From NCBI GenBank assembly GCA_050084515.1, contig CM114271.1, forward strand, positions 372,001 through 436,000: a DNA stretch of 64,000 nucleotides. Reading direction: 5' to 3'. Numbering within the stretch: the stretch's first letter is position 1; each line of letters opens with the position of its first letter. The notes beneath the pieces were generated by a model. The model ran no database searches, was not told the DNA's origin, and was given only the letters and a program-made list of their open reading frames with translations. The position numbers were made by a program, and so were the translations under genes. The stretch is from Blasia pusilla (Eukaryota). Shown here piece after piece: positions 1-60,200 of this stretch.

Positions 1-503
1 GGTTGTCGTTGGACTTCTTGTGTTTGGATCCCCTCCATCGTTGCTTCTTGCTTGCGCACCCATTCTTAGGGTTGACGTTGATTTCCTTAGTAGTTTCACT
101 CTTGTGTGCTATTGGTAGTGAGGCTGGAATGATGACCAGTAGAGTGTGGGAGGCTTCTTGTGGTGATGACAGGTTAGGTTGCCTACATCCATAGCTAGTA
201 GAGCTAGAATAGTACAACGACATCGACGTCACTTGGTTACTTAGTGGTGGTGATTTGGTGGTGGTGCGGCATCAGCGTTGGTCATCACGGAGCTGTCTGT
301 TGGTCTGGTTGGGGACCGTGGTGCGGACAGTGGTGGTTTTACACGGAGTGGATTGAGGTATCGGCTATCTTTTCCACTTCCGACGGTTGATGAAGAGGAG
401 GACGAGGGTGTTCCAAACATCGAGTTATCGAGTGTTGCAACTCCATTGATTTGGGATATGGACAGGATATATGGGGCCATGAAGGGCCCACGATGATACT
501 CGG

Positions 504-1743
504 GTGCAATGGTTACCACTGAGTTGGAGGACTTCATTCAATAGTTTGATACGTGGTGTGATATGCAGATGTTGCGAAACGCCACGTTGTTTACATCCTT
601 CTTGTTTACACCATGTTGCTGAGATTGAGACGTGGAGACAATATTGGTCTCTAGGCTATGTGTCTATCACCCATGGTGGTACAAGCCCGACGTTGAGTGG
701 TACAAGTACGATCCGGAGTGGGGGTACAAGTGGAGGTACCAGTGGGGGTACTAGTGGAGGTACTAGTGCCCCACCATCGTTCAGCCCGGTTGAAGAGTTC
801 CTCAAGAGATTGAAGAAGAACTATCAGGGAGTGAAGACAGAGAAGTTGAGGAGTCTTCAGGAATTTGAGCGAAAGACTGGTGAGAGTCGTCGTGAGGCAT
901 ACACTCGTATGCGACGCTTGATTTGAGTTACCTAGGGTGTAACCGAGGCTTAGGAAGTCAAGTTTTGGTCATGGATCTTGGACAGAGAGTTGCGCCGCAG
1001 GGTATGTGATGCTACTCTTATGAGTGTTAATTCATCCACATTGACCCATGTGTTTGCTCTATCTGAGAAGATTGAGCTTAATATGGTGGAGGAGAGAGTG
1101 GTGACATCCGCATTCAGTAGAGATATAACTACTTCTTCTCGTGTTCAGCAGTCCACCTCACAGTCTCATAGTAGTGGTGGTGGTAGTAGTAGTGGGAGTC
1201 GGGGGGGTACACACGACCTCAATCAGATCCTAGAGGGACACTTGCGCAGAGACCATTGCCTTCATTTGCTGCCCCGCAGCAAGGACAATCATGTTGGACA
1301 TGTGGAGGTGATCATGTTAGGAGGTTTTGTCCCCAAGAGGATGGGAGACGGACTTTGGAGGATGGGCCTCAGTCGGCCCCAACTCATTGTAATCATTGCG
1401 GGAGACCAGGTCATCCTCGAGAGCGTTGCTTTGATCTTCATCTAGAGTTGAGATCAGGCCGCGGCCGTGGTGGAGTAGCTCCAAGAGGCCGAGGTGGTAG
1501 GGGTGGTAGAGGTGGACAGTGGTTGGAGAGCCTACGGTGGCTACCCTTACTACTACAACAGAGTCAGCTATGGCTGCCAGGATTGAGCAGTTGGAGCATA
1601 AGTTGGCTACTATGGCTGGTATCCATCATAGAGCAAGTTTGGGAGCATGTGCTTCCACCTCTTATGGAGAGGATAATCTCTCTTATATGGCAAGTGCAAC
1701 ACAGGTTGAGGCATCAGCTGTAGTTACGAGAGGAGCCACTTGA
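504..1743 (+). pseudogene. gag: Retrotransposon gag with two zinc knuckles (disrupted)
   Basis: Capsid-like segment (LQEFERKTGESRREAYTRMRRLI), two CX2CX3-4HX4C knuckles and an RGG-rich tail; in-frame stops at 924, 933 and 951. Confidence 0.8.
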
Positions 1744-2161
1744 GCGTCAGAGCCACGTGGTGCTACCGTGGAGTTGGACCCACAGAGGGATGAGGTGGGA
1801 GGCATACTTGGCTTCCCCAGTCATTCTTGTTGTCTGAGGTGCTTAGGACTCCATCCATGGTTCCTACGCAACCTATTGAGCCTACAGTGGGGACTCAAGC
1901 ATCTTCATCACGTGTAGTAGACACGGATGCAACATCCAGTGCAGTATTGCGGATGGAAACTTCAGTGTTGGGATCCCCATTGTTTTCAGCCACAGAGCTG
2001 ATGGCTTTAGGAGTGCACTACGGCAAGAGGCTGATCGCCTAGTGCAGGAGGCTTAGTGTGAGGCTGTTACACCTCACGAGGAAGAAGAGGCCCCACGGCG
2101 GACTCCTACTTCTGGTCCAGTTGGGTTATCTCCTTTGGATACTACACCCATTGTATGGCAA

Positions 2162-3150
2162 TATCCGTCGGAGGGCATTTGTGTGTTAGATCTCTTTGGT
2201 GGGATTAGCACTGGTTTGGCTGCAGTGTTGCAGCCCGGTATTCCTGTGCGGAGATATGTGTATGTGGAGCGAGATTAGACGGCCCAGAGAGTCTCATCCC
2301 AACATATTGGTTAGTTGATGCGGAGATTTCCTGAGTTGTTGCCGCCATTAGCTATTCGTGGGTAACAGCGTGCTTTGCAATCACACATTGCAGTGTTGGG
2401 ATGCAGGATCTTGAGAGGGTTGGTCGTGTGGATTTAGTGATTGCTGGATGGCCATGTCAGGGTCATACACGTGCTGGTCGTGGTGAGGGATTACACGACC
2501 CTAGGTCTCGATTATTTTGGGAGATGTTACATGTGTTACGACATCTTCAGGTTCATCTGGCACGTGCTCGAGCTTACATTCCGGAGAATGTTCCATTATT
2601 GGATGACACTCGGACCCGGATGATGGCGAGTGTTCATGAGGTGCGGTCTTGGATTGGACTAGAGGTGTTGTTGGATGCAGCGCAAGTTGGCTTGCGTGCA
2701 CATTGTCCACGCTTGTGGTGGACAAACTTGTTGCCTAGGGAGGTTCTACGTCGAGCATATGATGCAGTGCAGCGGGATCCTTGCCTTACAATGGATAGTA
2801 TCTTGGATACTAGGCAACTTTCTCATGTGGTGAGGGTTATTGATCGGTCACCCATGGCAATGGTGAACCGTGTGGGCCATCCTAGGATGGCACTACCCAC
2901 ATTTGTGATTTTTCCCTCGTCACATGCCTATAGGGAAGGTGGTCCCGGGCTTGTATGGGATTCTCATGTACGAGAGTTGGTGGAGCCTAACATTGATGAG
3001 AGAGAGCGTGCGATGGGATTTGCTACTGGTGTGACAACGGTTGCTTCCATTTCTGAGGCTTCACGATGTCATGTCTTGGGTCAGGCCATGGACCTGAATT
3101 GTTGGACCTGGGATTTGAGTCTTGGTATGGCCGAGCAACGTCGACTTCGG
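2162..3150 (+). pseudogene. C5-cytosine DNA methyltransferase domain inside the retrotransposon (disrupted)
   Basis: Motif I VLDLFGGISTG (from 2183, in a frame missed by the ORF track); motif IV DLVIAGWPCQG (catalytic Cys 2455-2457); motif VI ENV (2584-2592); motif VIII-like RAHCPRLWWTN; motif IX ERERAMGF; motif X VLGQAMD. Stops at 2312 and 2363 and a frameshift near 2400. Confidence 0.9.
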
Positions 3151-3429
3151 ACTATGTCTGTGGATCTTCCATCCCTTGTGATGAGTTCGATGGCTACCGA
3201 GACGGAAGAGGCATCGATTGGGGGAGAGGAGAGTAGCATTTTGCATCCTTGGAGTAAATGGGATGTAATGGCTGGGCATCTGGATTTGGTTGTTCATCCT
3301 GGTGGAGGAGTTATTTGCTCAGATGATGGTGTAGCTAAGGGTGTACCATCTTGTGAGGGGGTTGCATAGCAGCCAATGGCGTCGTCCTCTCTCTCTAGTG
3401 TGCTAGTGGAGGAGATTTGGGAGCCATTA

Positions 3430-4800
3430 CTTGGGCCCAAGCTTACGGGAGGTGAGAAACGACACTTGATACACTTCCTACGTGCTTATAGGAGTTTTTT
3501 TGCCTTTAGCATGAAGGGGTTGGGTACTTTGGTTGGACCCGGTATACGCATTGATTTGGCTAGTGATATGCCAATCTTTCGTCGTCCCTACCGATAAAGT
3601 GATATGGAGAGGGACCTAATTCAGAGTAGGACGTTGGACCTTTTGGAGGCTGGATAAGTGGAATTGTCGCATGGAGAGTATGCATCAACCACTGTCATGC
3701 TTGCTAAAAAGGATGTGCATGGCAACTACACGAATAGGCGGATGTGTGGAGATTACCGTCCTATCAATCGGCTAACCAAGGCGGATAGGTATGCCATGCC
3801 TACACCTTAGGAGATCTTTGATGTGGTGGGACAGGCAAAGATTTTCAGTACTTTGGATCTTCGGGCAGGATACCATCAGTTGCCGATTCGAGAGAGTGAC
3901 AAGGCCAAGACATCATTTTGGGGTGTCAACTCTCATGGCAAGGATTGTTTGTACCAATGGAAATTCTTACCCTTTGGGTTGAAGAATGCACCTTCCGAGT
4001 TTCAGAGAGTGATGGACAGGATCCTAGCAGGATTGGATTTTGTTCAGTGTTACATTGATGATATATTGGTGTTTAGTAACATGGTGGAGGAGCATCAGAT
4101 ACATTTGCAGATTGTGTTTGAGGGGCTGAAAGCTCATGGTCTACGTTTGCATCCAGGAAAGTGTAAGTTCTTCCATGAGGATGTTGAGTACTTGGGTCAT
4201 GTGATCTATCAAGGTGGTTTGGGAGTTCAACAAGCAAAGGTGGAGGCTATTGCACTTATTCCTTGTCTAGTAGATGTGAGTAGAGTTCGGGCATTTATGG
4301 GATTGGAAAACTACTATCGGAGGTATGTGAAGGGATTTAGTGCTATGGCAAAGCCTTTGAACCAATTGCTGAAATCAGATCAGGAGTGGCACTAGGGAGA
4401 TGATCAGGAGAGAGCTTTTGTGGAGCTCAAGGCCCAGTTGGTGACAGCGCCTATCTTGAGGAGACCTTTCAGAGGACGCCCATTTCCGTTACACACTTAT
4501 TGGAGTAGGTTGGGACTTGGAGCGGTGTTGACATGACATGATGATGAGCACATGGAGATTGTGGTGGCCTATGCAAGTGGTTCGAATAATGCAGCGGAGT
4601 CGCGCTATAGTTCGGCACACAGTTTACCCACGTTACTGATCACCAGCCGCTCAAGTGGTTGATGGAGTCTGACAAGCTTACAGGGAAGCTTGCACGGTAG
4701 GCTTTTATCTTACAGGAGTATGACTTCCAGGTGGTACATAGACTTGGAGTTGCCAACCTTGATGCTGATGGGTTGAGTAGGAACCCATGTACTAGCCCAG
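3430..4800 (+). pseudogene. pol: Reverse transcriptase and RNase H of the Gypsy element (disrupted)
   Basis: RMCGDYRPIN, FSTLDLRAGYHQ, LPFGLKNAPSEFQR, YIDD, RAFMGLENYYRRYV, followed by RNase H motifs; several stops. Confidence 0.93.
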
Positions 4801-4979
4801 AGGATGAAACTGGGGCTAGATGGCATGGCGAGTTTGATGAGGAGATGGTGCTAGGTTGGCATGCATCTGCCTTTTTATGTTGGTAAGGGATGGACTCTAG
4901 TATGGAGGACCACATGACATCTTATTCTAGTCAAAGGGTAGATGGCCAGCCTTAAGATCCTAAGGTTGAAGATGGTGGT

Positions 4980-6404
4980 ATGGATCAGCGTGATATTCAA
5001 GATGATGTATTGGCGTTAGAGTTCCTACGGACCAGTAGGGTGCCAGGCATAGTGAGTGCCAAGGAGCGAGACCGTGTTCTTCAACGTGCTAAAAGGTATC
5101 GATTGGAGGAAACACATATTCTCCGTGTGTGGGAGGATGGTAGAGTACGAGTAGTGCCGCATTTGGCTCAGAGAGAGCTCATTGTGCGACATGCCCATGA
5201 GGAGTTGGGACATTTTGGGGTAAAGCGTACGTATAGCTTACTCCTTGGTCAGTACTGGTGGCGTGGCATGCATACTCAGGTGGTGCAGTTGGTGTCACGT
5301 TGTATGGTTTGTGACGGGGTGAGGGGATCATTCAATGCCCCTTCACCACAGTTACACCCCTCGCTTATTATGGGGTTGGGTTACCGTTGGAGTGTGGACT
5401 TTGCGGGACCGTTACCGTTGACTGTACGACATCATCGATATGTGTTGGTGATGGTGGAGCAATTCTCCAGGTGGATTGAGTTTGTGGCATTACTTAACAA
5501 GGCAAGTGAGGGAATGGCGTATGCGTTTCTCGATAGAGTGCTCAATCATTTTGGTGCACTAGCTGAAGTGTTGACCGACCAAGGTACAAAGTTTCAGGGT
5601 GAGTTTCAGGTCTTGTGTGACAAGGCGTTGATTGATCATCGGACCACGTCTCGAGATCATCCACAGGTGGATGGTTTGGCTGAGCGTGTGGTTCTGACGG
5701 TGAAGAGGGCATTGCGCAAGTATGGTCTACAGAAGGGGCATCTTGGAGACAGGGATATTCAGTTGCCATGGTTAGCCATGGGGTATAGGTTCAGTCGCCA
5801 AGCATCCTTGGCTTCCTTCTCACCTTATTTTCTGTTATACGGCCCAGATCCAGACTTACCAGTAGCAATTCTCCGGGAGTCTAGTGAGGTGGTGAACCTT
5901 GATGACCCAGAGATATGGATGAGAGTGTGTTCTCAGCGGGCACAACTCTTTCGGAGAGTTATGCCAACAGCCTTTGAGAATCTTGCCATTGCTCAACACA
6001 GGGATACGTTGCGGTATGCAACCATTCGGGGTGGAGGTTATCGACCATCGATTTGTAGGTTCCATGTGGGGAACTATGTCTATTTGCAGCAGATTGCACC
6101 GACAACGTTGGATGTGACGGCAGGCCGCACTATTTTACGAGTGCGCTAGGTGTTAGCTTCTAGAGTTCTCATGTTGGAGGGTCGTGATGGAGTTTTTTGG
6201 AAGGACCATGTGCGTAATTATGCACCATGTCATCTTCCAAATGTGGAAGATGCATGTTTGAGGTGCATGTTGTGTGGTTGTGATGGTAACACAGCCCGTA
6301 TGTTGGTGTGTGATCGGTATTCTAGGGGTTGGCACATGATGTGTTTGACTCCACGTATGGATGTTGTTCCTATTGGAAGGTGGGTTTGTCCTCAATGTAC
6401 TTAG
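4980..6404 (+). pseudogene. Integrase with C-terminal PHD finger (one internal stop at 6147)
   Basis: HHCC zinc site and D-D-E triad. The same frame continues past TAG 6147-6149 into CMLC...LVCDRYSRGWHMMCLTP...WVCPQC (C4HC3 PHD with one Cys changed to Tyr). Confidence 0.9.
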
Positions 6405-6579
6405 CAGAGGTAGATGACTTGATCTTTGCATGATATGGATTACAGATGTGCGACTAACGATGGGGCAACCTAGCATCCGGCCTTCTGATTCGTGCACCCA
6501 CGAAGGTGTATAGCATGTAGTAGATGTATAGGGCTACTTGGGAGTTAGAGGGACCTAACCGCCAGTTAGGGGGGCGAGT

Positions 6580-7141
6580 TGTGGTACACTTGTGTTTGTG
6601 GATGCTCTCGTCTATGTTATGTATGTATGTGAGTATGGTATGTCAGCGATGTATGTTGTATGACGATGTGGATTCGCACGACAACTGTCATGACCATACG
6701 GATTATGTCGTAGAGTATAGTGTGCTAGTAGAGGCCATACCTTATGTAGGGCCATAGTATCCAGGTAGAGATGTGGTTTCATACATAGGGTTGGAGGTTA
6801 CTCAATTGAGGGTGACTTTTCCACTACTCACAATAGTGTGGAGTGCATTCAAAGAACAATTAGTTTTTTGAGTTGAGCTTGTTGCGTTGGGAGTTAGCCT
6901 TGGTAGTGAGTAGAGCTCTTGGCTATGGTGGTTCCCGCAAGCTTCGACCTGGATTCTCCCATTGTGGACTGGGTTTGGCTCGATTGTATGTGATTCTATA
7001 CGTGTTTTATGACAGTAGGTCTTTCACGGATTTCAGTTGTGGTACACTTGTGTTTGTGGATGTTCTCGTCTATGTTATGTATGTGTGTGAGTATGGTATG
7101 TCAGCGATGTATGTTGTATGACGATGTGGATTCGCACGACA
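6580..7141 (+). repeat. Putative 3' LTR (TG...CA) whose first and last 104 bp are direct repeats
   Basis: Purine tract at 6568-6578 just before TGTGGTACAC. 6580-6683 and 7038-7141 differ at 2 positions by eye. Confidence 0.7.
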
Positions 7142-21300: not shown

Positions 21301-22033
21301 AGAAATTTGACTCCTTCCCCAAGCGAGCATTATGTAACCATCAGACTAGGTATGAATAGCTTAATGCAGTTTAATTTTTGTGCTCCTATGCAGAAAAGCT
21401 CTGAGTCACTAGTCTTCATGAACCTGAAGAACCGGCTTCAATCGGTAAAAAGTTGGTATCTTTGTTGCTCGATATCTCCCAATAGCAGGGAGGCACTACT
21501 CGTTCCAAATCATCATTACTTGGAGTTACACAGCTGCACAACACATCAATACCAATTACGCGAAAACCTCTTCGCTGACTACACTCTTCATTAGGAGAAG
21601 TCTGCATTCTGCAAACTTTCCAACTTTTTTGAAACTTTTTTGTGGACTGAATTCAACCTTTAATATCCCTGTATGCCAGTTTCTTGTTAATATAGATCTT
21701 TGTATATTCATGTTAGAAGTTTGCTACAAATGTCGTAAAAGAGAATGGTGATGTATACCTGATAGGTTTACCAGCTTCTACACATAATGCGTGCGCGAAC
21801 TCTTCAAAACGTTCCTTCACCTCAAGCACCACCTTTTCAAGGACCGCCTTTCTCTCATAACTCGCCATAGCATTCATTGCAGGCATGGCCCTTTCAGCTG
21901 CAGCTATTGCAGCGTCGATATCTGCTGCACCGGCCAATGCACAACGCGCAACAACTTTGCCAGTGTACTTGTTAGTCACCTGAAGTTCCGAGTTGGGTCT
22001 CACCGCTTTGTTTGCAATGTACATGGGGTATGA
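12398..22033 (-). other. ALDH21: C-terminal aldehyde dehydrogenase moiety, ALDH21 family, exons 17-30
   Basis: [65 protein letters not shown] (catalytic Glu), [10 protein letters not shown] (catalytic Cys), [37 protein letters not shown]. Confidence 0.92.
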
Positions 22034-25000
22034 CCGTATTTCTAGCTCTTCCTGATTCACTGTAGCATCGGCTGCCAAGTCTATGCTTGTCGACTCACTG
22101 GGATCCACTGGCACAGATTCTCCTGATGATGCACTTAAATATGGGGTACCATGTGTTATCTCTGGTTCCTCTCTGACCGACACATCAACATCGTCAGGTG
22201 TAGCTTCTCCTATGACTTCATTTGACTCTGGAGCACCATCTGCTGCCTCTGGTTTCTCTTCTGGAAGAGACATTTTCTTCAGAGAGTCTTGTGAACCGGA
22301 TTGCGATCCCTCATTGAAAGTCGGTCCTTGGAATCCCCGAGGAGTGGGTGGTATTGCTGTTGCTTCTGATAGGGCAATAGAGATTCTCTGTCCAGATCAC
22401 ACCCAGAAATAAAAAATGGTTAGTCAGCCTATCTCTGGTGAAAAAATAAGTACACAATATCCCAATCATCCGTGCATTATTACATATATTATGACTTACT
22501 GGTGCCTTTGGCATCATATTCTTGATAATTCCAGGCAACTCTTTGTCGAGGATTGTGTTTGCCCATGTATAATCCACAGGAACCTGCAAAACAGAAGTAT
22601 TGGCCACCATGATTGCCATTGCAAGTGAAAAAAAATCTTAAGTCATATGAAAACGTTCACTTTGACCACCCAGAGCATCTAATTAACATGGAGATTTACA
22701 GTTCTGAAATAGGTTTGGAAAAAGGGTAACTTTGATGATCCCACGCAACTAGCACTACACTCCAAACTTTCACTCGTCCTGACTAAGCTTCTCTGTACTT
22801 TTAGTTACCTCAATAAGCTTCACTCCTGTCTTAGAAACATGAAGACATTCGTGCAGAATTTGAGAAAAGCCATCAGCTTCCGTTACACGATATCCCTTGG
22901 CCCCATAGCTGCAAAAAGATATGCAGTGCTAATCACTGGTGATAAAAGAAATTCCCAATTAAAATTCCCTGCTTTAAGATTAAAGACATGTGTGTTCGTG
23001 AGATTTGTTCAAATGCTTGAGGCTATATTCTTTTCTCAAACTCCCGAATAGTGAAATTACAACTATGAGATCAGTAAACAGAAGCTACTTCTTGATTTCA
23101 CTTTTTGTATTTTGGTCAATCTTATTTTTTGGTGTGGGGGATATTGTCTTCCAGGGTTCCTTAACAGTCTCCATGATTCCAGATAGAGTCCTCAAGGGTT
23201 ATAATAGACCAAGAATAGGAGTAACTAACCCTGAACCCCTGAGACTTCACAAAACACTCATCTGTCTCTACTCTTCAGATTTAGAGTGTAAATGGCATTT
23301 GATCACCCAAACTCAGAGCACACAAACTTTCCGAATCTGTTGATCCAAGCAACTATTTCCTATGGTTATCGGCTGAAGAAATGTAAAATGTTCATTTCAT
23401 TGACCAGTCTTATCATGTAACTTTCCCTGGGGGGAAACTTCTAGTACGCAGTAGTACCTGTTTGCGTACGCCACAAAATCAGGATTCTTAAGTTCCAATC
23501 CAAATCTGCAATTAAAAACAACTTTCGAATCAGAGTAACTCAGGACTGATTAAACAGAAATAACTTCCCTAACACAGGTCATCTGATATGTTGTGACTTG
23601 GACATGATCACGTTAATATTTACAAATGTTCCATGTACAACTAGACTGAGTTCTATGAATGTTACCAGCGAACAAAATATAGAAAACATTAGAATCCTGA
23701 GGAAAAAATGTTGACGCTGGAAAAAATAGTCCTTACCTTTCAAAATGAGCTGCATTCTGTTTCCATTTTATCATCCCGTAGGCATTGTCATTTATGACAA
23801 TAACTGTAAGATTCAGATTTAAGCGAACAGCAGTCTCCATTTCCTGGCAGTCAGCGTTAAAAGTCAGCGTTAAAAGTTGCTCGAAATCAGTCTCAAACTT
23901 CTTCACTGCTCACACATAACCACTAACTGGATCGGCATGAAGATACACTATACAGCTGCTACAGACAGACCAAAGGGAATGTCATAATGAGAACAACACC
24001 AGTTAGCATTGGGAAGCTAGAAGATGGTCCTACATATCACGCTGTGACTTTTATTTGCAAAGCCACGTTCCTTGCCTGAGAGTTCATCATGAAGCCACCA
24101 TCTCCACAAACAGCTACGACCTTTCTGTCGGGGTATAATAATGCAGCCGCCATTGCTGATGGCAGTCCGGCTCCCATTGTTGCTAATGCATTGTCCAAAA
24201 GCAAAGTGTTGGGCTCGTAAGCCTGCGCAGATCAAAGCGTCAATTTAATATTGGCAACCTACATCAACAATATCTTCTAGTGTCATTCAAGACATGACTC
24301 TTGAGACAAATCATCTCCAGGGAAACCATCAACGAGTATATCTGTATGCTATGTCGCTGGTCCTAGTGCAATATTGTTATATAAATCCAGAGGTAAAGCC
24401 CATCCTGTAAACTAGACAGAGTACTGCGCAAAATCATTCAGAGTTCAAAAAAAGACCTTGTAGCAGCGGGCAAACCAGATCTTGTACATTCCTGCCAAAA
24501 CATAAAAAAATCCAACTGTTAAGTGCGTTCAAGGCGGAAGAAGGAGCTACTCGATTCAATTATCCCCTTGGACGAAACCCAAACTCTCCAAATCTCTAGC
24601 GAAACTTATTACAGATTCATTCATGAACGATTATACTAATAAACTACGTTCTAGGATCAATTCAATTTACCTACCATTTTCAGGTGAAGGACAGGGTGCA
24701 TGGGAAGGAAAGTACGAGAACATACTCGGAGAGTCTGAGAATAAAAAACCCCAAAAGGCTGTGATGAGCCAGGAAATAAACCCTTGGATCTAAAATCTCC
24801 GAGTTCAAAACCCACAACTACTAGCAATCCAATGGCAGTGAAAGTAAATGCAGGCATGAGGTGTCTTCACCTCTTGGACTCAAATTGTGAAGAATGGAAA
24901 CATAATATACTCTACACAAGTTACCACTCTTCAATTCTTTTGCCTTTCAAAATGCTCTACGGTTCATAAGCCTCTGAGGTTATACGCGCCAACGGTAGAG

Positions 25001-28000: not shown

Positions 28001-31000
28001 TCAAAAAATCTTGCATTTAGACTCATGCTTATTGCTGATGACCATTGTGATTGCAGGAAACATCACTGCAGATATTACTTCATGTACTACTTCATATTAC
28101 TTCCTTCCTAACAGTGTGCCAACGGTCCGCAATCACTTCAATACCTTATATCAGGCACATCTACAAATACCTATATCAGCATTAGGTTCTTCCACCCTCC
28201 AATAGTTTCAAATGATATAACATATTTGTTGATTGTAATAAACCCTTACAACCCTCCGGGCTTTGAGAATATTCTGATCCTCACTGGCACACGATAAAAA
28301 TATTGTTTCTAGTAGGAACACACTCCAAACCCTGACAATGACTTTCTACGTAGTGATTGCTTTTCAGGGCTTTTTATAAACTTTCTGTTAAGAGGATCGT
28401 GCACAAATATGTTCCTTTGATTGTCCTACACTTTTCCCGACAGATTCAGGTCAGAATATGGGATAGTACTGGCAGTGTAGCTAGACATCATATGAATTTT
28501 ACAAGCACGAAAGCCTACGTGACACTCATAGATGGATGTATATTCGTATCATTCAGTTTTTCAGGATCTTGTGCATGAGTTACCTCATTAAAAATGGAGG
28601 TTTTTCAACAACATCGTGACCAACCATTATGATAAGATCTGCTTTCTCAATGCAGACATGCTCGTAGTCCTTTGCTGACAAAGCGCAGCAACCTAGGTAC
28701 AGCGGGTGGGCCTCTGCAAGGTCCACGCAAGTCAAACAACAGTTCCCATCATACATTTATGAGCTAAACTGGAATAGCGACGGCGTGCATCTAATTTGTA
28801 GTAATAGCGCTCAAAGTCTGCTGAATTATTCGGCTGTTCAAAAATCTTACCCGAAACAACACCCTTCCCCATCTGGGTTGTGATGAATGGGATGCTAAGT
28901 TCGTCCACCAGTTCCCGAAGCCTGCAGTACGAAACATAGGTATATCATAAAATTTTGTTTTCTACTGGAAAGTCAAAGAGAACGAGGAGATGTACTATTG
29001 TGCTCCTGGCACTTTTCCTTACATTTTCTGTGTCAGTTTGCGATTAGCACCAGCACCAATTAGAAGGAGTGGAGTTTCTGCAGCCTCGATCATCTCAACA
29101 GCCTTCCGAATCGCCTTTTGTTCAGCAATTGGCCGTCTCACAGGATGCACCGGAAAAATCGGGGCGTCAGTTTTCTGTTCTGCGATATCCTCCGGCAATT
29201 CCAGATGTACTGCTCCAGGTTTCTCTTCTTCAGAAACTCTGATTGCCTCCTCACTAGTGATGGCACTAGGTCTCCATCCGCTATCTGTTTTGTAAACTGC
29301 ACATGGACTCTCACAATATTCCCTCTTAGAATGTCACCCAGTTTCAAATGCACTTGACAATAGAATCTTGAAAACTTCTTTCAACCCAATTAGTCGACTA
29401 TTTATCGAACAGGGTGTAAACCCCAGTTCGGGTTTCAACAACTCAGTTCTCAACGATATCAAAAATATTCAGCGACGTCACTCTTCCACAGCACCTTCTC
29501 GCATCGATTCTAACCTTCGATTAAATTTTACATCTGACCATGCAAATCTTCTCGGTAAACAGAACGAGCTTTGTCTTCAAAAGGTCTTCCCATAAAGACT
29601 CCCGAAAGGTAAGCAACCAAGTCTTTAACATGTTGAATTGTTGCTTCCTTGGCTAATACGTTATGGGTTGACCCCAGCTGCAACGCCTTCTCAGATTAGA
29701 AAAGAAAACTCCTCTCTTGAGTTATCATCCAAGACATTGGACCAACGCAGACCACTATAAACAGACTTCCAAAAACCTACCACTCGGTGGCCATTATCCC
29801 CACTTCACATCCATGAGCCCACTTCACATCCGTGAGAGGAGGCATCAGATCCACAGTGAAGTCATCGTGCTTACAGGCACCACCTTCAAGCTCACAGGGA
29901 TACATTTGTTGTGGGCATCCAGCCCCAACTACCAAAATCAGAAACTTACGCCCACATGCAGAGCAGACCATTCAATTACCTTATCATTCTATGAACATAC
30001 ATTAGATGGAACCATCTTGAAGAGATTCTTAAATCACCACTTTGAGTAGTTCCACAAAGAGAATGGGCATAAATACTGCGATGATCAAGAAAGCATGATC
30101 CAAAGATCTATAAAGCCTACATCCTGGTTAGAAATCCTTCAAACACACTGGGACGTACCATCCACCTAGAAATATGCGTAACAAAGTCTTACGGAAGATG
30201 TTTGCTTACTTGGCTTCACAGATCTGCATTTCAGATCTGTGAAGCCAAGTAAGCAAACATCTTTCCCAACGAATGCACCACCTTCACTTTCCTCAATTGT
30301 TTTCCCGCAACTGGATCACCGTCAATATTCTTCCAGGAAAGCCCCGGGCGGGAGCGGGGGGCTGGAGGGACGCCATGTAACATATCTCACCTTGGTGATT
30401 GGACGCATGTTCTCAACGATGTCTACAATCTGGAATGACCCCTGCTTACTTTTGCGGATAGGCTTCTGGCCGGTGATCATCATCTGCTCACATCCACATC
30501 AAGTAGATAAACTTAGCACAGGAAAAAGAACTAAGGCAGTCCCATTCCCCTCACGCATTTTTAGATCTCGCAACGGATGACGCAACTAAACTTCCCAAAT
30601 ACTTGCACGTCTTTAACCACAATCCCCACTTTGTAAACCCCAATTGTCCACCACCAGCACCCCAAGGATGAGTAAAAGTGAATGTGAGTTAAAGACCAAA
30701 CCATTGCGAAACCAGCCAGCTGCGCGTATGCAGCAGCAGTGGCAAAATTTGTCGCTCCAGGTCCCAAGGTGGACAAACAAACCCCAACCTTTCCTGTCAA
30801 TCTCCCGACTGTAGCAGCCATAAATCCTGCTGCCTGTTCATGCCTCGTTACCACCAGCTTTATCGAAGAAGTTTTCAGAGAGTCCAGCAAATCAAGATTC
30901 TCTTCTCCAGGTATTCCGAAAATATACCTGCCAAAAATTACAACCAACCCTGTGATGAGACTACAACACAGGCAATGGCGAGTATCCCATATCCACAAAA

Positions 31001-31448
31001 AAATATGGGACAGTAAAGTCGGGATTTGTTACGAATTAGCTAGTCTTCCTTAACTCAGAACGATTCTTCCCCAGACCCTGCTATGTGCGAACTCGCGACT
31101 AGTCTTTGGAGAGCACTCTCCCAAGGGCCATGAGCCTCGAGACAGAAATTGCATGTTTATGAGGATCGCTCGGAGCACCAGCAGTACGAGAGAGTGAGGA
31201 TTAGCGATGGCCCCTCTCACATGATCTCTCTTCAAAATATCCTGCTTTAGAAGATGCAAATCGCTGAAGAAGGTTGAAATCGCGCAACACAATCCAACTC
31301 GAATCCTCAATTCCATGAGGAATCAGTGATCTTCCGTTTGATCAGCGCAAGATGTTGTAGGAACTCACTCTATACCCTCGTTCTCCAGCGCCTCCACCAT
31401 CACATCAGAAGTTTTCCTCATCACGGCAGAAGGAGTTCCTGTCGTCAT
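12398..31448 (-). CDS. Fusion protein: ThDP-dependent acetolactate-synthase-like enzyme (candidate 2-oxoglutarate decarboxylase) + ALDH21-type aldehyde / succinic-semialdehyde dehydrogenase; 30 exons, 1158 aa if one missing base in exon 4 is restored
   Basis: Exons (minus strand): 31448-31369, 30927-30702, 30483-30391, 29296-29023, 28921-28851, 28713-28584, 27760-27688, 27524-27432, 27001-26913, 26693-26653, 24491-24457, 24222-24076, 23843-23737, 23505-23458, 22908-22809, 22583-22500, 22387-21759, 16848-16780, 16313-16256, 16158-16096, 15934-15873, 15550-15394, 14550-14470, 14316-14212, 14007-13951, 13768-13665, 13564-13489, 13304-13203, 12981-12874, 12511-12398. All introns are GT-AG except one GC-AG, phases agree at every junction, and no stop lies between the two domains. 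Confidence 0.88.
17400..19800 (+). mobile_element. Decayed LINE (APE endonuclease + RT), antisense within intron 17 of the fusion gene
   Basis: [13 protein letters not shown] and CDHQ (APE-like); degenerate GVxxGCPL near 18990 and LLIYADE (YADD-like) near 19110. Boundaries approximate. Confidence 0.6.
22500..31448 (-). other. N-terminal ThDP-dependent enzyme moiety (acetolactate synthase large-subunit-like, bacterial PRK08322 type), exons 1-16, ~564 aa
   Basis: [75 protein letters not shown]; ThDP/Mg motif [11 protein letters not shown]...[26 protein letters not shown]. Confidence 0.93.
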
Positions 31449-32467: not shown

Positions 32468-33525
32468 ACTAGTATGGGGGCATGTGCAGTATTAAAAAAC
32501 GTGTGAATGCGCTATAGGTGTGTGAGTGGGAGGTGTAAAAAGATGGAGTTAATGACAACCGTACTCTAGATGAGATAAAAGCTTGCTATAAAAGATGATA
32601 TGAAATGATTTTAATGCATAATCTACTTAAAACTTGGTGGAGGAACCACCTGGAGAGCTTTATTTTGAGGGTTGAGGAGTGCATATTTGCACTAAAATGG
32701 GAATGCCCACATCCGTCCTTGGTACATCCTAATAAGATGAGATAACAAGCATAGTATGACAAGATAATAACATGTTCCTATCTTTTATTCATTTTGTGAC
32801 TTGCTATGGATATGGGAAGAAATGAAAAAGTTTGGATAATAATCTTGTAGGAAGTAACGGGGTTTAATTTGATTGGTGGGAGTTATATTTATGGGATGAC
32901 AGGTTTAATGATGATTTAATGTGTGTGAAGAATGGATTAAAATTTAATAGTAATTATTATAGGAAGTAATAGGATTTAATTTGATTGGTGAGAGTTATAT
33001 TTACTGAAAGTGGTTTAGTGATGATTTTTTGAATGTGAGGAATGGCTTGAGATTTAATAGTAATTATTATAAGAAGTAGTGGGATTTTATATGATTGGTG
33101 CCCGGGGTTATATTCATGGGGGAGTGGTTTAGTGGTGATTTTATGTATGTGAAGACACTGAAGAGTGGGTTAAGATTTGGGTAATAATTATTGTAGGAAA
33201 TAGTGGGGTTTAATTTGATTGATGGGAATTATATTTATAGGGGGAGTGGTTTAGTGGTGATTTTATGTATGTGAGGAGTGGATTAAAAAATATATCCACT
33301 CTTTAATTTCATTTTTCTCTACTAATTTTTTACAATAATATCTCTTTTCGTGCTACGCACGAAAATGCTAACTAGTATCCTTAAAAGGTAAGTAGATAAT
33401 CTAATCTTGAATTTAAGTGATCCTATTGGTTTAGACATTGAGTAATTCTATTGGCTGGAAAGGACATGTGTCTAAAAGAGATATGATCTCAAAATGAAGA
33501 GGCACTCTTCAATTATAATATAGAT
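32468..33525. mobile_element. Non-autonomous Helitron-like sequence(s)
   Basis: Hairpin TTTTCGTGC-TAC-GCACGAAAA (33345-33365) followed by CTAG|T (33372-33376), a typical Helitron 3' end. Minus-strand A|TCTATATTAT start at 33524; ACTAGT at 32468. Confidence 0.55.
32838..33287 (+). repeat. Four diverged tandem units of ~110-125 bp
   Basis: Recurring TAATTATT(A/G)TAGGAAGTA...TTTGATTGGTG...TTATATT...GTGGTTTAGTG.TGATTTT. Confidence 0.8.
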
Positions 33526-35049
33526 GTGCAAAAAATATAATTATAAAATGCCTTATGAAGAAAATAATGGGGTATGAACTTTTAGATATGTGACACGTGG
33601 AGTGCTATAAATCTAAAATGATTATGAAAGTAATGGCAAGAAAAGAATGCATATGGATGTAGGAAAAAAATTATGATGTTCCACATTATTTTGGAAATAA
33701 TATTTTGGACAAAAATATTTATTAAAATTTCATGGTAAGGAAATAAATATGAATGTTCAAAAAAAGATCTGTATAGCATAAGGAGGCCATAAAATGGAGA
33801 TCTGATTGAGGATAAATTTTAAGTTGCATAATGATGAATGTACAATATTTAAAACATGCTTATGCATGCTTTGTTTGACTAACATAACTGGAGTGATTTT
33901 TAACCTCTTATTTTTTATGTGACTAAAATGTAGAAGTGTTGAACCTTGGACGCTTGGATGGTAGACGTGTTCTCATTTATTGCACCTGAGCAATACAGAG
34001 ACAAGTGTGAGTATCAATAAAATCAATAATAGACTCTACAAGATTGGAAAAGAAAACATACACCATGGATCGGCCTGGCAATGTTGTTGGATGCGGCGAG
34101 TGTGGGTTCACGAGCACATCGCCCGCGTCTTTGGTGGACAAACTTGGTGCCACATGAGGTATTGCGGAGGGCTTATGCGAGAGTGGAGCGTCCAAGGAAG
34201 TTTTTGCTCATGTAAGAAAATCTTGGCATCATTCTTCACATAATGAGACTCGATATATGGATGATTTATTACCGTGATCATCCAATTGTCCCCACACTAG
34301 GCACTACATATCATCATCATATCTCTTAAGTTTTAGTAATAAACATGATAGATACATATTTTAGGTACATAGAGGTTGGCTCAATAGGACCTCTATATCA
34401 TATTATCACACTTAGGGTTTTGCACAAATTACCCCAAATGTTTTCAAGTTCAATGCAACTTCATACTCCACATGTAAACAGATGTTGAATGAATGTTTTG
34501 GTTGGAATGTAATAAAATGGATAAAGTTTTGTGGTTGGAATGAGTAAACTTCTTTGATATTATGTATAACTATCACCATTGCAATGTACGTATGACAAAC
34601 CTTGATTTGTGATCTCCTTTGTTCGTTCTTATGGTACATGACAGGTTCAACTGCATATTTGATACTTTGAACCCCTTAGACACCTTGTGCAAATGGCAAA
34701 CTCTAGTTCAAACTCAGTGACACTAGTAGAAAAGAGGGGGGAAGGGAAGGATGATATGCCAATCCATGTGTTGTCCTTCAAACAAGGACAAACACTGACC
34801 GGCTTTCGCACAAGATGTGATAGGGAAATTGACTTGGAATTTGGGATGATAGGCTACCTGGTAGAGTTTGACATCGTATTGAGAGCCTAATTGAGGTAAG
34901 TGAACTTGAAGGAAAAGTCTTTGTGATTGCATAGCAAGCCTATGGATGCACAAGAAGGGTCACGACTGTGTCCTTGCACTCATATGCTACCACTCTCCCT
35001 ATCATAGACTTCACAATTATTGGATCTCAGTCACATACAGAAGCCACTA

Positions 35050-45392: not shown

Positions 45393-46040
45393 ATGGCGTC
45401 CCCCGATCTTCTGTGGCAACTTGTGAAGAGATCGAACAAGTTTCTGGTGAAGCAGAACGGAAACAATAACCGTTCCGTGCAGTTCAGCTCCGAGCCGAAC
45501 AATCTATACAACTTGAACTCCTTCAAGTTTTCAGGTAAATTCTCGGATACCTTGCCATGTCCTTTCCACCGCCTGAGGCATTCTCCTGTATTCGTTTGTT
45601 TCTCATCCGGTGTCTCGGCAGGTTTGGCGAACAAGAAGACGGTGGCCATCAACGCCGCTGGCGAGGATCTTTCAGTGGCCCTGGGAACCACGAAGACTAA
45701 GAAGTCCAACAAGCCCTCCGATTCTGTGAACAGGTCGGTGTTGAAGAGGGACTTCAGGAAGATGGCCCGCGCTGTGGTCAACCAGGTAAACAAGCCGTGC
45801 TTTGTTTTAGGTATCCTTGAAAGAATTGAACTACAGGCACGGGAGAAAGATTGTTCGATGCAAGATCCGTGTTCTTACGAGGATGGCGCTCTGGTCCTGC
45901 AGGTAGCCGAGAATGGCTACAGGCCTGATCTGAAGGAAGCAGCGTTAGCCCGACTTGCTGCAGTTCACAAGAGCTTGCGGGTAGCGAAGGCTGGAGTCTC
46001 GAAGAAGACCTCGAAGGGCCGAAAAACTCTGCGAAAGTGA
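45393..46040 (+). CDS. RPL28: 60S ribosomal protein L28 (eL28), 3 coding exons, 147 aa
   Basis: Exons 45393-45534, 45622-45785 and 45903-46040 give [20 protein letters not shown]...[25 protein letters not shown]...[19 protein letters not shown]. Probable 5' UTR intron 45199-45392. Confidence 0.97.
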
Positions 46041-54929: not shown

Positions 54930-56637
54930 CACTCCCAATTGTAATGTGGATGGAACTTCTTTTTCCTACTCTAGATAGGGCTACATACAATTGGTCATGA
55001 GAATATTCGGGAGTAGATAAATAAATATAATTTTTGTGCAAAATTTGATTTTTAGACTTATTAATAATTATAACAAAAGACAGCGAATAGGTTATTGAAG
55101 CCTACGCAAATCAAATGGCAAACCGGAGTAAGATGCAATCAATTGGATACGTGGAACAAAAACTTGAGTTCCAATATTCTTCCGTGTAATGATTTCAGCA
55201 TTTGTGCAATGTTTCATAAATCCACGAATCACCAATCTAGCCCCATTTGCTTGTCCATGTGACTCATTCATGTTTCGTAAGAGTGTGATTGGTACACCAA
55301 TCGTCAAACACAGACGATGCGGGAATAGTCCAGAAGGCAACCATGCGTTCAAAAATTCAGTTGGATAGATATGACTCATCCCCTCATTCGGAATAAAATT
55401 AACACTCAAGTAAATATGCTCATGTATACTATATGTAGTGAATTGGTGAGAAGAAGTAATATTAATATCCAAACTTTCCCAAAAAGAAGTTCCAATAAGA
55501 GAATTAGAAGGATAGAAGGATTACTTGTCCAAAAATTCGAGATATGACATCTCTATTTATTTCGTCAACATACCTATTCCTCGTTGTCAAAATTGCAGAA
55601 TCTTTCAAGAAATCAATGTCATGAAATCAGCTTAGAGAATTGCAATAGATCAAATCAATAAGATCGCATATCTTGTTACTTAGTGACAATTCCATATGAT
55701 AAATGTATAAAGTCTTATCCCAAATGAGGATGCAAAGGTACACACGACCCTCTCCCACTTCCAATAACCAATTAGCAAAAGCTTGTTGTTCAATACGCAA
55801 ATCACCTTCCAACCTTTGCACTCGCATGTTTGTTATCAACTTCATGACCTTAACATTAGACCAAAGAGATAATCTCTTGATAGTGGCTTGGACAATTCGC
55901 GGGCGATCCCCATGACGAACAACATGCAAAACTTAACGAAAGTCACCACCAAATATCATGAGTTTTCCACCAAATGGTAATTGTCGTAGATCATCAGAGA
56001 CCATTCCCATGATATCTTATAAAGTGCAATTTACTGCCTTGAATGCATAACGATGAGCCATAGGTATTTCGTCCCATATAATAAGTATCACATCGTGGAT
56101 TAAGCGCGCTTTATCACTATTGACTTATAAACTACAAACGAGAAAGGGAACTAAATTAGAATTTGCAATACTTGGAATAATGAAATTTTACGTTGCATGT
56201 AAAGTAGGTAGTGACACTTACTTGCAAGTAGAGCTCTCATGAAGATTGATAGGGATCTTGAATCGTGAATGGGCAGTACGTCCTCCATCTAACAATAGAG
56301 CAGCTATTCCAAATGATGTAATTGTCAAAGCTATACCTCTTGCACTGCTTACAATTGCAAGGAGAAGATTATATAAATATCTCTTTCCTGTTCCACCCGG
56401 ACCGTCGATGAAAAAACATTTTGGAGATGGTGGAGCATTCGCGGATATTTTATCAAGATCATCATGTATAACATCCCAAACAACACGTTGTCCTTCATTT
56501 AGACACGATTCTCCAACTTTTACATGCTCTCTGTTCAGAGAGATCTTCAAGATTGGACAGTGTGGACACCTCGGCTCTTGCTCTATGTGTTGTGAATTCC
56601 CATCTAGAGACCAGATATGAGTGGGATGGTGTTTCAG

Positions 56638-56716
<79 letters not shown>

Positions 56717-57200
56717 AGATTGTACCTGACTGCCCTCTTCCCTCCGTTGCGTTGGATATATCCATATCTTTTGATAACTTAAATATCACAACATCAGATC
56801 CCTTATATGCATATTTATATAAGTACTTCAGAGAAGAAACACTACGTGTGATCTCCAAATTAATGTGACAACTAAAGAGGATGCACAACATAGGATTGTA
56901 GGGCATCACCTAACGATTATCCAATGAATGTTCATGCTTGGTTACTACCCTCCCATTCTCCAATCTAAAAAACACAATAACAAATCATGAATACGTCAAT
57001 TTCATATGGCTTACAATAAAAATATAAAAATATAAAAGAAAAGCCAAGATGAAAAGATCCTTACTTGTGAAAGATCGGGTAACCTTCTTCTGTCTCTACC
57101 GTGCTGGCTGCAAAAGCTTTAGGATAGCCTTTGGTACACTTTTTTGTTTCCTTGTCCATACATGGTGCATTTCAATTTAATGGTCCACATGGCCTATGAA
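54930..57200 (-). mobile_element. Helitron RepHel remnant (Rep C-terminus + PIF1 helicase)
   Basis: PYNP...CHINLE...KYLYKYAYKGSD; FFIDGPGGTGK; GIAALLLDGGRTAHSRFKIPI; GGDFR; LLRNMN...NGARL; RRLQ. Multiple stops. Confidence 0.92.
56641..56712 (+). repeat. (GA)n microsatellite
   Basis: Pure GA run of about 36 units. Confidence 0.99.
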
Positions 57201-57263: not shown

Positions 57264-60200
57264 ATGATACGATCATTGTTGTGCGCATACATATCGCTAC
57301 ACAACATACATCGCTGGTCATATCTACATCACACAACACCAATCTTCCCCACACACGGGTCGATCCACACATGTACAAAAATTAACTCATACATATACAT
57401 GGAGATCACAAAACGGCACACTTGGCCTAAAACTGCACTCCTCAATCTACATCGGCATATCGAGCCTCGTCCACCTTGTGCTATCAAGGAATCCGAACGC
57501 TAGCACCCTAGTCCTATCTCACACACATATAAGAGAGGTGCTCCAACGGCCCAACATAAGAAAGATGGCTTAGGAAAGCCATCTTCCTCTCTTATATAGG
57601 GTTGAGAAGCGCCAAAGGCTCTTCCCCTAAAAATAGCCATGTCCTTGGTAACTCTCGCGACAGGTTACCAAGGGCGGATGACCTGGTCAACAAGTCATCC
57701 GGCTGTGAAAGACCTAAACAGGAAAGTTTTCAGAAACAACGTTCTTGACACAATGGACCTATCCTCAACCTCATCCGACAACGTGGGACAAAGTTACACT
57801 CAAGATAGTCCGCTGGCTCCTACACCCTATCCACGATAGATCTCGGCCAAACGGCTACTCAGATGTGACAATTGTCATGCGCATACATATCGCTGGTCAC
57901 ATCTACACCACACAACACCGATATTCCCCACACACGGGTCGATCCACACATGTACAAAAATCAACTCATACATATACATGGAGATCACACAACCGCCCCC
58001 CTTGTTGGGAGTTGGATCTGCCCAACTCTAGATAGAAAATATCACATCTCTCTAACATGACCTACTATCCTATACACATCCCGGACACATCCATCGTCCC
58101 ATGGGAACTACATCAACATGGGGGGTCAGACATAACATATGCCACCCTCGAGAACAACCATCACATACCAACATGGTGGCTCCACCCCTCGCAGATCCGC
58201 ACAACATACACCTCAAGCGTGTAGGTACCACTACCAAGCTTGGATCCACTGTCCCGTCTACATTTGAAAGATGACATGGCGCACAATTGCGCACATGATC
58301 CTTCCAAACCATATCATCCCATCCCTCCAACATGACGATTCGTGTCGGTAATACCTCGTGCACACGTAGGATCGTGCGCCCTGCAGTGACATCTAGAGTC
58401 GTGGGTGCCGCCTGCTATAAATACGCGTAATCTCCAGGATGAAACCTCCTAATCCTTGGACGATAACCTCCTCCACAAATGATCACGTACCTCAATGTAT
58501 CTCTATGTTGAGCAATAGCTAAGTTCTCAAAGGCCATAGGCATAACTCTATGAAAAATCTTCGCCCTCTGAGAACACGCTTGTACCCACACATCTGGATC
58601 ATCAAGATCTAACACCTCCGCCATATCACGTTGAATAGCTGCATGTAAATCTGCCTCTCTCCCAAAGAGCAAAAAGTATGGTGAAAATGACGCCAAGGAT
58701 GCCTGCCGACTTAAGCGATAATCCATAGCCAACCATGGCAACTGTAGGTCCCACTCCCTCAAGTGTCCTCTCTACAAGCCATACTTGCGGAATCCTCTCT
58801 TCACTGTTTGTACTACTCTCTCCGCCAACCCCTCTGCCTCAAGATGATCTCTGGACGTGGTGCGGTGATCTATCAGCGCCTGATCACACAAGGCCTGAAA
58901 CTCTCCCCTGAACTCGGTACCCTGGTCAATCAACACCTCCGCCGGTGCACCAAAGTGACTAAGCACACGATCTAGAAACGCATAAGCTGTTCCCCCGCTC
59001 GCCTTGTCTGGTAGTGCCACCAACTCTATCCACTTGGAGAAAGAACCACCATGACCAACACGTACCTATGATGACGCACCGTCAATGGCAAAGGTCTCGC
59101 AAAGTCTAAACTCCATCAATAAGTAAATCGAAAATTGACAAAGGATGTAACTGCGGAGTAAAAGCATTGAAAGATGCTCGCACTCTGTTACATAGCATAC
59201 ATCTGGCCACAAACTGATGTACCCCAGTATGCATGCCGCGCCACCAATACTGAATCTGGAGTAAGCTGTAAGTACGCTTTACTCCAAAATGTCCCAACTC
59301 CTCATAGGCATGTCGCACTACACGTGCTCGTTGAAAAGGATGAGATACCACTTGTATCCTACCATCTCTCCATACCCGCAAAATATGAGTCCCCTCCCAC
59401 CTGAACCTCCTGGCTCGCTGTAGGATCCGATCTCGCTCCCTAACATTCAGTGTGCTCGCTATGACGCGAGTGCGCAAGAACTCCACAACCTCCACGTCGT
59501 CATGGATATCATGACCACCTGTCGCCTCCTCACTGACCTACGGATCCAAAGACTCATCATCCAACCCCGCCACTGGAGTCATCACTTGTGGGTGACCTAC
59601 CATAGTCAACCAACATAGATAGGCAGATGCATGCTAACCAGGCACCATCTCCTCATCACTCTCTCCGTGCTATCGAGCTTCTGTATCGTCTCTCTTACTC
59701 GGACATAGGTTACGACTCAACCCATCCGCATCTTGGTTCAGCCGGCATGGCCTATGAACCACCTCAATCTCATACTCGTGTAGTAATAGAGCCCACTTGG
59801 CAAGCTTTCCCGTAAGCTTATCGGACTCCATCAACCACCTCAACGGCTGATGATCAGTGATAAGTGGGAAAGGGTTGCCGAATAAATAGCACCTAAAAGG
59901 TGCCACGGCCCACACTGCAGCCAAGCACTCTCCCTCATAGGAGTTGTACTTCGCCTCTGCAATGTTGTTCGATCGGTTCGCGTAAGCCACAACGAACTCC
60001 CTCTCCTCATCATCCCTGTGAGTAACCACTACTCCTAGACCCAACATGCTCGTGGACGTGACAATATGGATGATACTTGCATTTATCTCTACTCAGCCAT
60101 ACCTAGGCTGACTATCCATATAAGACAATTGAGGTCCATCGCCTGCCCCAACACCTGTCTCGGGGATGCCTCAATCATACCTAGCACCGCTGTAGTACCT

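Follow-up and report, generated by a model that had tools for sequence, protein, structure and literature searches.

The DNA described here is a window of 64,000 nucleotides from Blasia pusilla (assembly GCA_050084515.1, contig CM114271.1, positions 372,001 to 436,000 of the forward strand), and all window coordinates are counted from its first letter. Positions 458-7141 hold the remains of a Ty3/Gypsy-type retrotransposon, referred to as copy 1, in which a C5 cytosine DNA methyltransferase (DNMT) domain lies between the gag region and the reverse transcriptase (RT). We consider it probable (about 0.85) that this is a dead copy of an element whose family has a DNMT3-like C5 methyltransferase among its regular domains. 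RT, RNase H and integrase follow one another in the window and the protease lies upstream of them in relatives, which is the Ty3/Gypsy order of protease, RT, RNase H and DDE integrase. Below, related proteins carry P numbers and metagenome loci L numbers. Copy 1 is composed of the following features.

458 to 2010, + strand: gag region, degraded; residues 1-553 of the Marchantia protein P0121 match 458-2027 in tblastn with 53-73% identity, stops and frame changes
~1292 to 1333 and ~1388 to 1429, + strand: gag zinc knuckles CWTCGGDHVRRFC and CNHCGRPGHPRERC, read in the open reading frame (ORF) 1193-1723
2010 to 2027, + strand: deletion junction; about 250-280 codons, the aspartic protease region of relatives, are gone
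2162 to 3366, + strand: C5 cytosine methyltransferase domain, DNMT3-like, motifs I-X (PF00145, motif reading, 60-76% identity to bryophyte proteins)
3367 to 3375, + strand: in-frame stop and its context, TAG CAG CCA, between DNMT and RT; candidate leaky stop
3376 to 4900, + strand: RT and RNase H, degraded (RVT_1, E-value 4.9e-31 on 3811-4395)
4956 to 6149, + strand: integrase (Integrase_H2C2, 5.4e-15, ~5166-5312; DDE core rve, 8.3e-12, ~5382-5663)
6264 to 6398, + strand: PHD finger, C-terminal in the integrase frame, which stops at 6402-6404 (PF00628, 2.2e-7)
6566 to 6576, + strand: purine run AGGGGGGCG, immediately 5' of repeat B1
6577 to 6683, + strand: repeat B1, ending in CACGACA and followed by 2 bases (AC); repeat family D1, 110 nt, 97% identity, spacing 458
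6686 to 7034, + strand: repeat A2, beginning TGTCATGACC, between B1 and B2
7035 to 7141, + strand: repeat B2 and the 3' end of the element, ...CGCACGACA, followed by TCTT

Domain, decay and ends of copy 1

The motifs of the methyltransferase can be read directly from the sequence. Motif I, DLFGGISTG (2189-2215, in the frame of 2057), is followed by motif IV, AGWPCQG, with its Pro-Cys codons at 2452-2457, motif VI, ENV (2584-2592), motif VIII, RLWWTN (2710-2727), motif IX, ERERAMGF (2999-3022), and motif X, LGQAMDLN (3077-3100). All six lie on the + strand in unpermuted, canonical order, and no intron is necessary to connect them. A preliminary description of this DNA had reported these motifs in order between gag and RT, on the coding strand and without introns, and this is confirmed. 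The span given there was 2162..3150; its start is retained, while its end fell short of the domain, which continues to 3366. The profile comparison suggested in the same description gave 31.3 bits against PF00145 (E-value 1.9e-7) for the 344-amino acid (aa) frame 2335-3369, above the cut-off of 22; intact relatives score 35-51 bits. A search with this frame returned 137 relatives of similar length at E-values of at most 0.001, the top match reaching 3.9e-141 with 71% identity, and the domain is therefore far beyond chance.

The N-terminal third of the domain is broken by three stops (2279-2281, 2315-2317 and 2366-2368) and by a frame change near 2395-2404, and an additional stop, at 2054-2056, is located just 5' of the domain. 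The remainder, 2395-3366, is an uninterrupted frame of 324 codons. For comparison, the remaining element has about 1 stop per 280 bases, and a stop-free block of this kind has a chance of about 3 in 100 by a rough Poisson estimate.

Copy 1 had been called dead in the preliminary description, and comparison with its relatives bears this out in the stops, the frame changes and the loss of the protease. The part from gag to DNMT has 11 stops within matches and six frame changes with respect to P0121. The part from RT to the PHD finger has 10 stops, one of which is the conserved junction stop discussed below, and one frame change with respect to the intact ORF2 of L048; residues 3-422 of this ORF2 align to 3337-4614 in tblastn, with 6 stops inside the match including the junction stop. 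Residues 553-797 of P0121 and residues 545-826 of the related protein P0122 gave no match in the window by tblastn, and the protease motif of P0122, LLDSGAQ at residue 638, falls within the stretch deleted from copy 1.

Contigs from sequencing runs add to this picture. At position 2055, copy 1 has an A where most contigs of one DNA sequencing run have a G, so that the stop at 2054-2056 is private to copy 1. Among the listed differences between copy 1 and other copies in the DNA-run contigs, A or T in copy 1 stands opposite G or C at 145 sites, and G or C stands opposite A or T at 65, a bias that fits decay through C-to-T transitions. One DNA run contains 134,845 pieces that are at least 90% identical over the whole element, a depth that does not give a copy number. 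Three runs that were only guessed to be RNA gave contigs over the DNMT part (e.g. 2330-2859 and 2017-2585), which we do not count as expression. In base composition, the GC skew of the coding strand is +0.23 for window positions 458-6404, +0.23 for L012 (7523-14592) and +0.11 for L048 (976-8226); it is 0.00 in the rest of the window and -0.01 in the L053 lineage. The observed/expected ratio of CpG is 0.55 in the element versus 0.69 in the rest of the window.

The 3' end of copy 1 consists of the repeats B1, A2 and B2. A G-run before B1 is also present in L043, L045, L053 and L058, and in copy 2, a second copy in the window described below. A 5' long terminal repeat (LTR) was sought within window positions 1-457, and positions 1-470 had no match in 6300-64000 by blastn; the 5' partner, A1, is placed outside the window. 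In full-length relatives from three lineages, one A stands alone about 1 kb before gag, and the 3' end carries B-A-B; no B was found next to the 5' A of L043, L053 and L058, even when short words were searched. In place of the two equal LTRs of Ty3/Gypsy elements, the element has unequal repeats in the layout A ... B-A-B. Inside this layout, the B1-NN-A2 junction looks like the ends of the element joined to each other.

The integrase is of the DDE type, and the ends behave in an integrase-like manner (TG..CA, 4-bp duplications). In relatives the ends read 5'-TGTCATG ... CAYGACA-3', and perfect 4-bp target duplications are found at five of the five loci with both ends (L041 AAGG, L043 CATA, L053 GGTC, L058 CCAA and L068 CCAC). 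This evidence comes from the relatives, the window showing the 3' end only. The contigs L043 and L045, which come from different metagenome records and share the same insertion, flanks and 4-bp duplication, were counted once.

Relatives in the window, in bryophytes and in algae

Two further pieces of the family are located in the window.

57310 to 60417, - strand: copy 2, internally deleted, with RT and gag gone (tblastn; blastn, 70% identity to 4611-6391; repeat family D2; Pfam)
34066 to 34191, + strand: isolated DNMT fragment of about 41 codons (tblastn with P0121, P0122 and P0130, 68-76% identity; blastn to 2650-2735)

Copy 2 comprises B2-A2-B1 (57310-57996), the PHD finger and the integrase, RNase H, and DNMT pieces at 60092-60244 and 60250-60417, and its repeat layout is that of copy 1. 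Close to the isolated DNMT fragment are AT-rich, tandem-like direct repeats (32826-33288, families D3 and D4, with units of about 110 and 346 bases).

Besides the 137 relatives of similar length, the search with the 344-aa frame returned 33 longer ones. The named hosts are Marchantia polymorpha, M. paleacea, Riccia sorocarpa, Calypogeia fissa and four Sphagnum species, that is, liverworts and Sphagnum, in agreement with the land-plant lineage proposed in the preliminary description. In P0122 of Marchantia polymorpha (1278 aa, from a cluster of 18 sequences), a CCHC knuckle at residue 334, DSGA at 638 and a DNMT with all motifs at 964-1258 share one frame. P0130 joins DNMT, RT and RNase H, and P0168 (2188 aa) has CCHC, DNMT, RT, RNase H and integrase within one frame. 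The metagenome locus L048 looks intact: its ORF1 of 1369 aa (protease, DNMT) is followed by TAG and, in the same frame, by ORF2 of 1047 aa (RT, RNase H, integrase and PHD). The PHD finger is C-terminal in L048 ORF2 and also in the Marchantia protein P0152. These joint frames, together with the pieces in the two further copies of the window, establish the DNMT as a feature of the element and its family, as had been proposed. The expectation of one continuous ORF from gag through DNMT and RT to integrase holds for P0168, while L048 and most junctions are split by a stop. Within the gag-protease frame the DNMT occupies the C-terminus, and a conserved stop codon closes the frame.

Metagenome loci were retrieved with a DNMT profile; 309 of 599 pattern matches were confirmed as relatives, and 80 loci were fetched. 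When 1.84 billion representatives were searched with a profile, there were 9504 matches at E-values of at most 0.001 and 453 clusters at E-values of at most 1e-30, with many polyproteins of 1000-3400 aa. Two architectures were found. In type A, to which copy 1 belongs, the DNMT lies between the protease and RT, and in type B between RNase H and the integrase. The PHD finger follows the integrase in both types. A midpoint-rooted tree of 231 DNMT domains, built with no outgroup, groups all type A and window-like sequences in a single clade (90 tips, support 0.994) that contains no type B; the 92 certain and 24 probable type B sequences all fall outside it. The named hosts of type B are green algae, Scenedesmus sp. 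and probably Cymbomonas tetramitiformis. Motif IV of type B is mostly GWECQD, with Glu for the Pro of Pro-Cys in 60%, and some members have extra domains: P0198 a G-patch, and P0160 a Tudor domain that follows the PHD finger. Two family members on short contigs, P0065 and P0454, are filed under bacterial metagenome-assembled genomes (Obscuribacterales and Betaproteobacteria) and are most likely mis-binned plant or algal DNA.

The preliminary description had judged the RxWWTN and ERxMGF motifs to be DNMT3-like. A profile of 19 family members compared with the Protein Data Bank (PDB) matched DNMT3A best (2.2e-19), followed by DNMT3B/C (~5e-17), NtDRM (5.9e-8), DRM2 (5e-7), M.HhaI (2.3e-6) and DNMT2 (1.3e-5), and the distance of DNMT3A from DRM (6e-8) and M.HhaI (2e-6) speaks for that judgement. 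No chain of DNMT1 or of a chromomethylase was matched by this profile at E-values of up to 1. A single-sequence search against solved proteins gave the same ranking, with an alignment running from motif I to VIII and including IX and X. Taken by similarity, these results support a DNMT3-like domain. No PWWP or ADD domain was found by Pfam in 32 long relatives; the DNMT3s of algae and protists reportedly have no PWWP or ADD domain either (PMC12344493, in the text available).

The catalytic residues are well conserved. Across the 231 domains, the Cys of motif IV and the Glu of motif VI are each kept in 98-100% and the Arg of motif VIII in 96-99%, and in the 90-member clade of the window FxGxG, PC, ENV, RxWWTN, ERxxxGF and GQxxD are each kept in 82-99%. 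The ratio of non-synonymous to synonymous substitution rates (dN/dS) of the DNMT is 0.28-0.33 for the window versus L004, L012 and L045 (dS 0.6-0.7) and 0.23 for L047 versus L048. Values of 0.6-0.8 occur only among very close copies, as is to be expected from decay after insertion. Judged from these ratios, the DNMT evolves under purifying selection.

The rest of the window contains other genes and gene pieces. Host exons on the - strand encode an aldehyde dehydrogenase (21713-22396) and a thiamine-pyrophosphate enzyme with an acetolactate-synthase-like N domain (30561-31028), and those on the + strand ribosomal protein eL28 (45393-46037) and a syntaxin-5-like N-terminus (63369-63908). The eL28 gene has its closest match in Marchantia polymorpha (2.1e-53), followed by a lycophyte, Riccia and Sphagnum, which by itself places the genome among land plants, probably in a liverwort other than M. 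polymorpha. Pieces of a PIF1-like helicase (55092-56778, - strand; PF05970, 2.1e-23; Pif1 2B domain, 2.7e-12) adjoin a microsatellite coding for (SL)n and are probably the remnant of a Helitron-type transposon.

The junction stop, a proposed mechanism and its alternatives

In the window, the TAG at 3367-3369 separates DNMT and RT frames that are in the same phase. To define comparable junctions, we required that the RT N-terminus be alignable from its first residue with at least 70% identity, which was the case for 36 of the 64 matches examined. A stop stands at this codon in 35 of the 36 (27 TAG and 8 TAA), and the remaining junction has TAC. The six bases that follow are CAA CCC in 31 junctions, CAA CCA or CAA CCT in 2, CAG CCA in the window and CAG TTA in L047 and L048, a lineage with about 47% protein identity to the window. 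Wherever the upstream frame is still open (344-1369 codons, in the window, L002, L004, L008, L012, L047 and L048), ORF1 and ORF2 are in the same frame, and predicted proteins from several sources terminate at the junction stop. Most LTR-type elements use frameshifts or a single frame, and readthrough of a stop is unusual among them. The leaky-termination consensus of tobamoviruses is given as UAG_CAR_YYA in the text available of PMC3542737. The window and L047/L048 fit it exactly, and the L001 group, with TAG CAA CCC, fits at 5 of 6 positions. From the conservation of stop, phase and context we infer a programmed readthrough, in which the DNMT would be made as the tail of Gag-protease. A second candidate readthrough site, a TAG that precedes the DNMT in the L053 lineage, was rejected as a private mutation, since 22 of 27 relatives have TGG there.

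The mechanism that we propose may be described as follows. An intact element would consist, from 5' to 3', of A1, a leader, gag with its knuckles, protease, DNMT, UAG, RT, RNase H, DDE integrase, PHD finger, the purine run and B1-A2-B2. Most ribosomes would halt at the UAG and release Gag-protease-DNMT, and a minority would read through (UAG CAR YYA) into a fusion with RT, RNase H and integrase. Since termination would mostly occur at the UAG, the methyltransferase would be made in Gag-like amounts. After cleavage by the protease, the DNMT may methylate the new cDNA of the element or DNA nearby, and the PHD finger of the integrase may direct insertion to chromatin with an unmodified histone H3 tail. 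The nearest solved PHD fingers are those of CHD4, PHF12, PHF21A, KDM5, ATXR5 and UHRF1, which read unmodified H3K4. The B1-NN-A2 junction would mirror the joined ends of the element and could serve to rebuild the ends during reverse transcription.

Beyond the single element, we put forward tentatively, at somewhat less than even odds, that there is one ancient Gypsy-type family in Viridiplantae, extending from green algae to bryophytes, which is marked by the PHD finger and the A ... B-A-B repeats and carries a DNMT3-like enzyme throughout. In its land-plant branch, the DNMT would have moved to the end of the gag-protease frame, before a leaky UAG; there the enzyme would be made in capsid-like amounts, packed with the RNA, and would place 5-methylcytosine on the cDNA before PHD-guided insertion into silent chromatin.

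The presence of a methyltransferase in copy 1 could also have a local origin: a host DNMT3 gene or a processed copy of one could have landed in or beside a single Gypsy copy, or a nested insertion or an assembly error could have created the arrangement. The advanced decay of copy 1 and the internal deletion immediately 5' of its DNMT could suggest such a rearrangement. However, DNMT pieces are kept in the two other copies of the window, the arrangement recurs in Marchantia, Calypogeia and Sphagnum proteins and in the single open frames of P0168 and L048 ORF1, and the same order is found in 80 of 80 mappable metagenome loci, which were chosen by their DNMT. The clean split of the DNMT tree by domain position (the 90-tip clade, support 0.994) and dN/dS values well under 1 between lineages also argue against a local capture, which we regard as extremely improbable. 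A different view accepts that the family keeps the domain and supposes that it does not methylate DNA, but is either a pseudo-enzyme whose part in the particle is structural or lies in binding, or an enzyme acting on RNA. Methylation of RNA was discussed as a possibility for a LINE-borne DNMT that was inactive on DNA in yeast (PMC5890265, in the part available), and the Glu that replaces the Pro of Pro-Cys in 60% of type B sequences would suit this view. The full set of catalytic motifs in the clade of the window (82-99% each) and the nearest solved structures, which are those of DNMT3A/B, enzymes that act on DNA, with the tRNA enzyme DNMT2 far behind, make it improbable, and we retain the reading of the domain as a DNA methyltransferase encoded by the family.

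Several observations weigh against the picture drawn above. Copy 1 lacks its protease, and the window does not reach its 5' end; most copies of the family are degraded, a + strand frame of at least 400 aa being present in only 12 of the 80 metagenome loci; the PF00145 alignment spans profile positions 61-120 only; and the DNMT3 placement is an E-value ranking among solved proteins, not a tree. As for the stop, the L053 lineage and P0168 run from DNMT into RT without one, and the commonest context, CAA CCC, fits CAR YY and ends in C, not A. Moreover, an in-frame ATG stands 6 bases past the stop in the group of the window, where reinitiation is possible. The conserved stop could accordingly be a plain ORF boundary, with RT, RNase H and integrase translated separately from this ATG, by termination and reinitiation or by leaky scanning; the sequences TAG CAA CCC ATG and TAG CAG CCA ATG, found in the L001 group and the window, are what it would need. 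L047 and L048, by contrast, have no ATG there (TAG CAG TTA GAG GCC GTG), yet they keep both stop and frame. ORF1 and ORF2 are in phase wherever the upstream frame is open, and the readthrough consensus, for which chance is 1 in 512 per stop, is fitted exactly in two lineages. An ORF boundary of this kind is unlikely in our judgement, if less so than the two alternatives above, and we prefer programmed readthrough.

Relation to known elements and significance

Previously, retrotransposon-borne DNMT3 domains were described in Klebsormidium nitens and Symbiodinium (de Mendoza et al. 2018, PMC5890265, in the part available), and later texts that cite the 2018 work use the wording 'streptophytes (Gypsy-DNMT3)' (PMC12344493 and preprint 10.64898/2026.05.21.726589, in the passages available). 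According to the text available of an opinion article from 2019, land plants have no such transposons (PMC6338049). A full-text literature search, outside which lay supplements that may list such sequences, found no report of a bryophyte retrotransposon-borne DNMT3, and a term search of the available text of a Marchantia review, the Mpmet preprint, Yaari 2019 and an MBE 2025 paper found no mention of transposon-borne DNMTs. The element is thus of a known kind, the streptophyte Gypsy-DNMT3 of 2018, now documented in land plants.

KnitGypsy-Dnmt3 of K. nitens, which we compared by its published description and not by sequence, is the closest counterpart. According to the part available of PMC5890265, it has an intronless, unpermuted DNMT3-like domain in a Gypsy-type polyprotein, is under purifying selection (Ka/Ks < 0.2, against 0.23-0.33 here), and shows the DIRS-like order A-coding-B-A-B despite its Gypsy domains, with which the 3' end in the window and the relatives agree. 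It belongs to a charophyte alga, whereas the present elements belong to land plants (liverworts and Sphagnum). Its DNMT is placed in 'the Pol polyprotein ORF' by the same source, whereas here the DNMT closes the gag-protease frame before a conserved stop. Furthermore, the acquisition is assigned there to 'the K. nitens lineage' (PMC5890265, as available), whereas the family described here is also found in green algae (Scenedesmus, Cymbomonas). No Klebsormidium protein was among the named matches of the family searches.

In SymbioDIRS-Dnmt3 of dinoflagellates, too, a retrotransposon polyprotein includes a DNMT3-like domain and the order is A-coding-B-A-B, but this element has a tyrosine recombinase (PMC5890265, in the part available), whereas a DDE integrase (rve, H2C2) is found in the present family, together with TG..CA ends and 4-bp duplications. 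In DIRS elements a tyrosine recombinase replaces the DDE integrase; the window has rve and Integrase_H2C2, and its relatives have target duplications.

Among host enzymes, DNMT3A/3B are the best solved match, from motif I to VIII and in IX and X, and share a short stretch between VIII and IX. The domain differs from host DNMT3 and DRM in that the long relatives have no PWWP or ADD, in that its motifs are unpermuted, unlike those of DRM, and in its position inside a Gag-protease polyprotein. As in chromoviruses, a chromatin-reader module is located on the C-terminus of the integrase; it is a PHD finger here and a chromodomain there. The junction stop resembles the type I readthrough of tobamoviruses (PMC3542737, in the part available) in having UAG and CAG CCA (window) or CAG UUA (L047, L048) between an abundant upstream product and a polymerase. 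It differs in that the commonest context of the family is CAA CCC and in that leakiness is predicted here from context.

The anatomy added here, namely the position of the domain, the conserved stop, the PHD finger and the integrase-type insertion with unequal repeats, provides handles for experiments. It also concerns the annotation of bryophyte genomes, in which many gene models named 'DNA (cytosine-5)-methyltransferase' are pieces of transposons. DNMT-bearing retrotransposons are common in liverworts and Sphagnum, and a gag-protease-DNMT frame of 1278 aa is present in Marchantia polymorpha, which is genetically tractable; the question why a transposon carries the enzyme that normally silences transposons is therefore testable in a model land plant. 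If the reading of one ancient family is true, both the 2018 view of a Klebsormidium-specific acquisition and the statement that land plants have no such transposons need revision, and the capacity of liverworts and Sphagnum for de novo methylation would be partly transposon-encoded.

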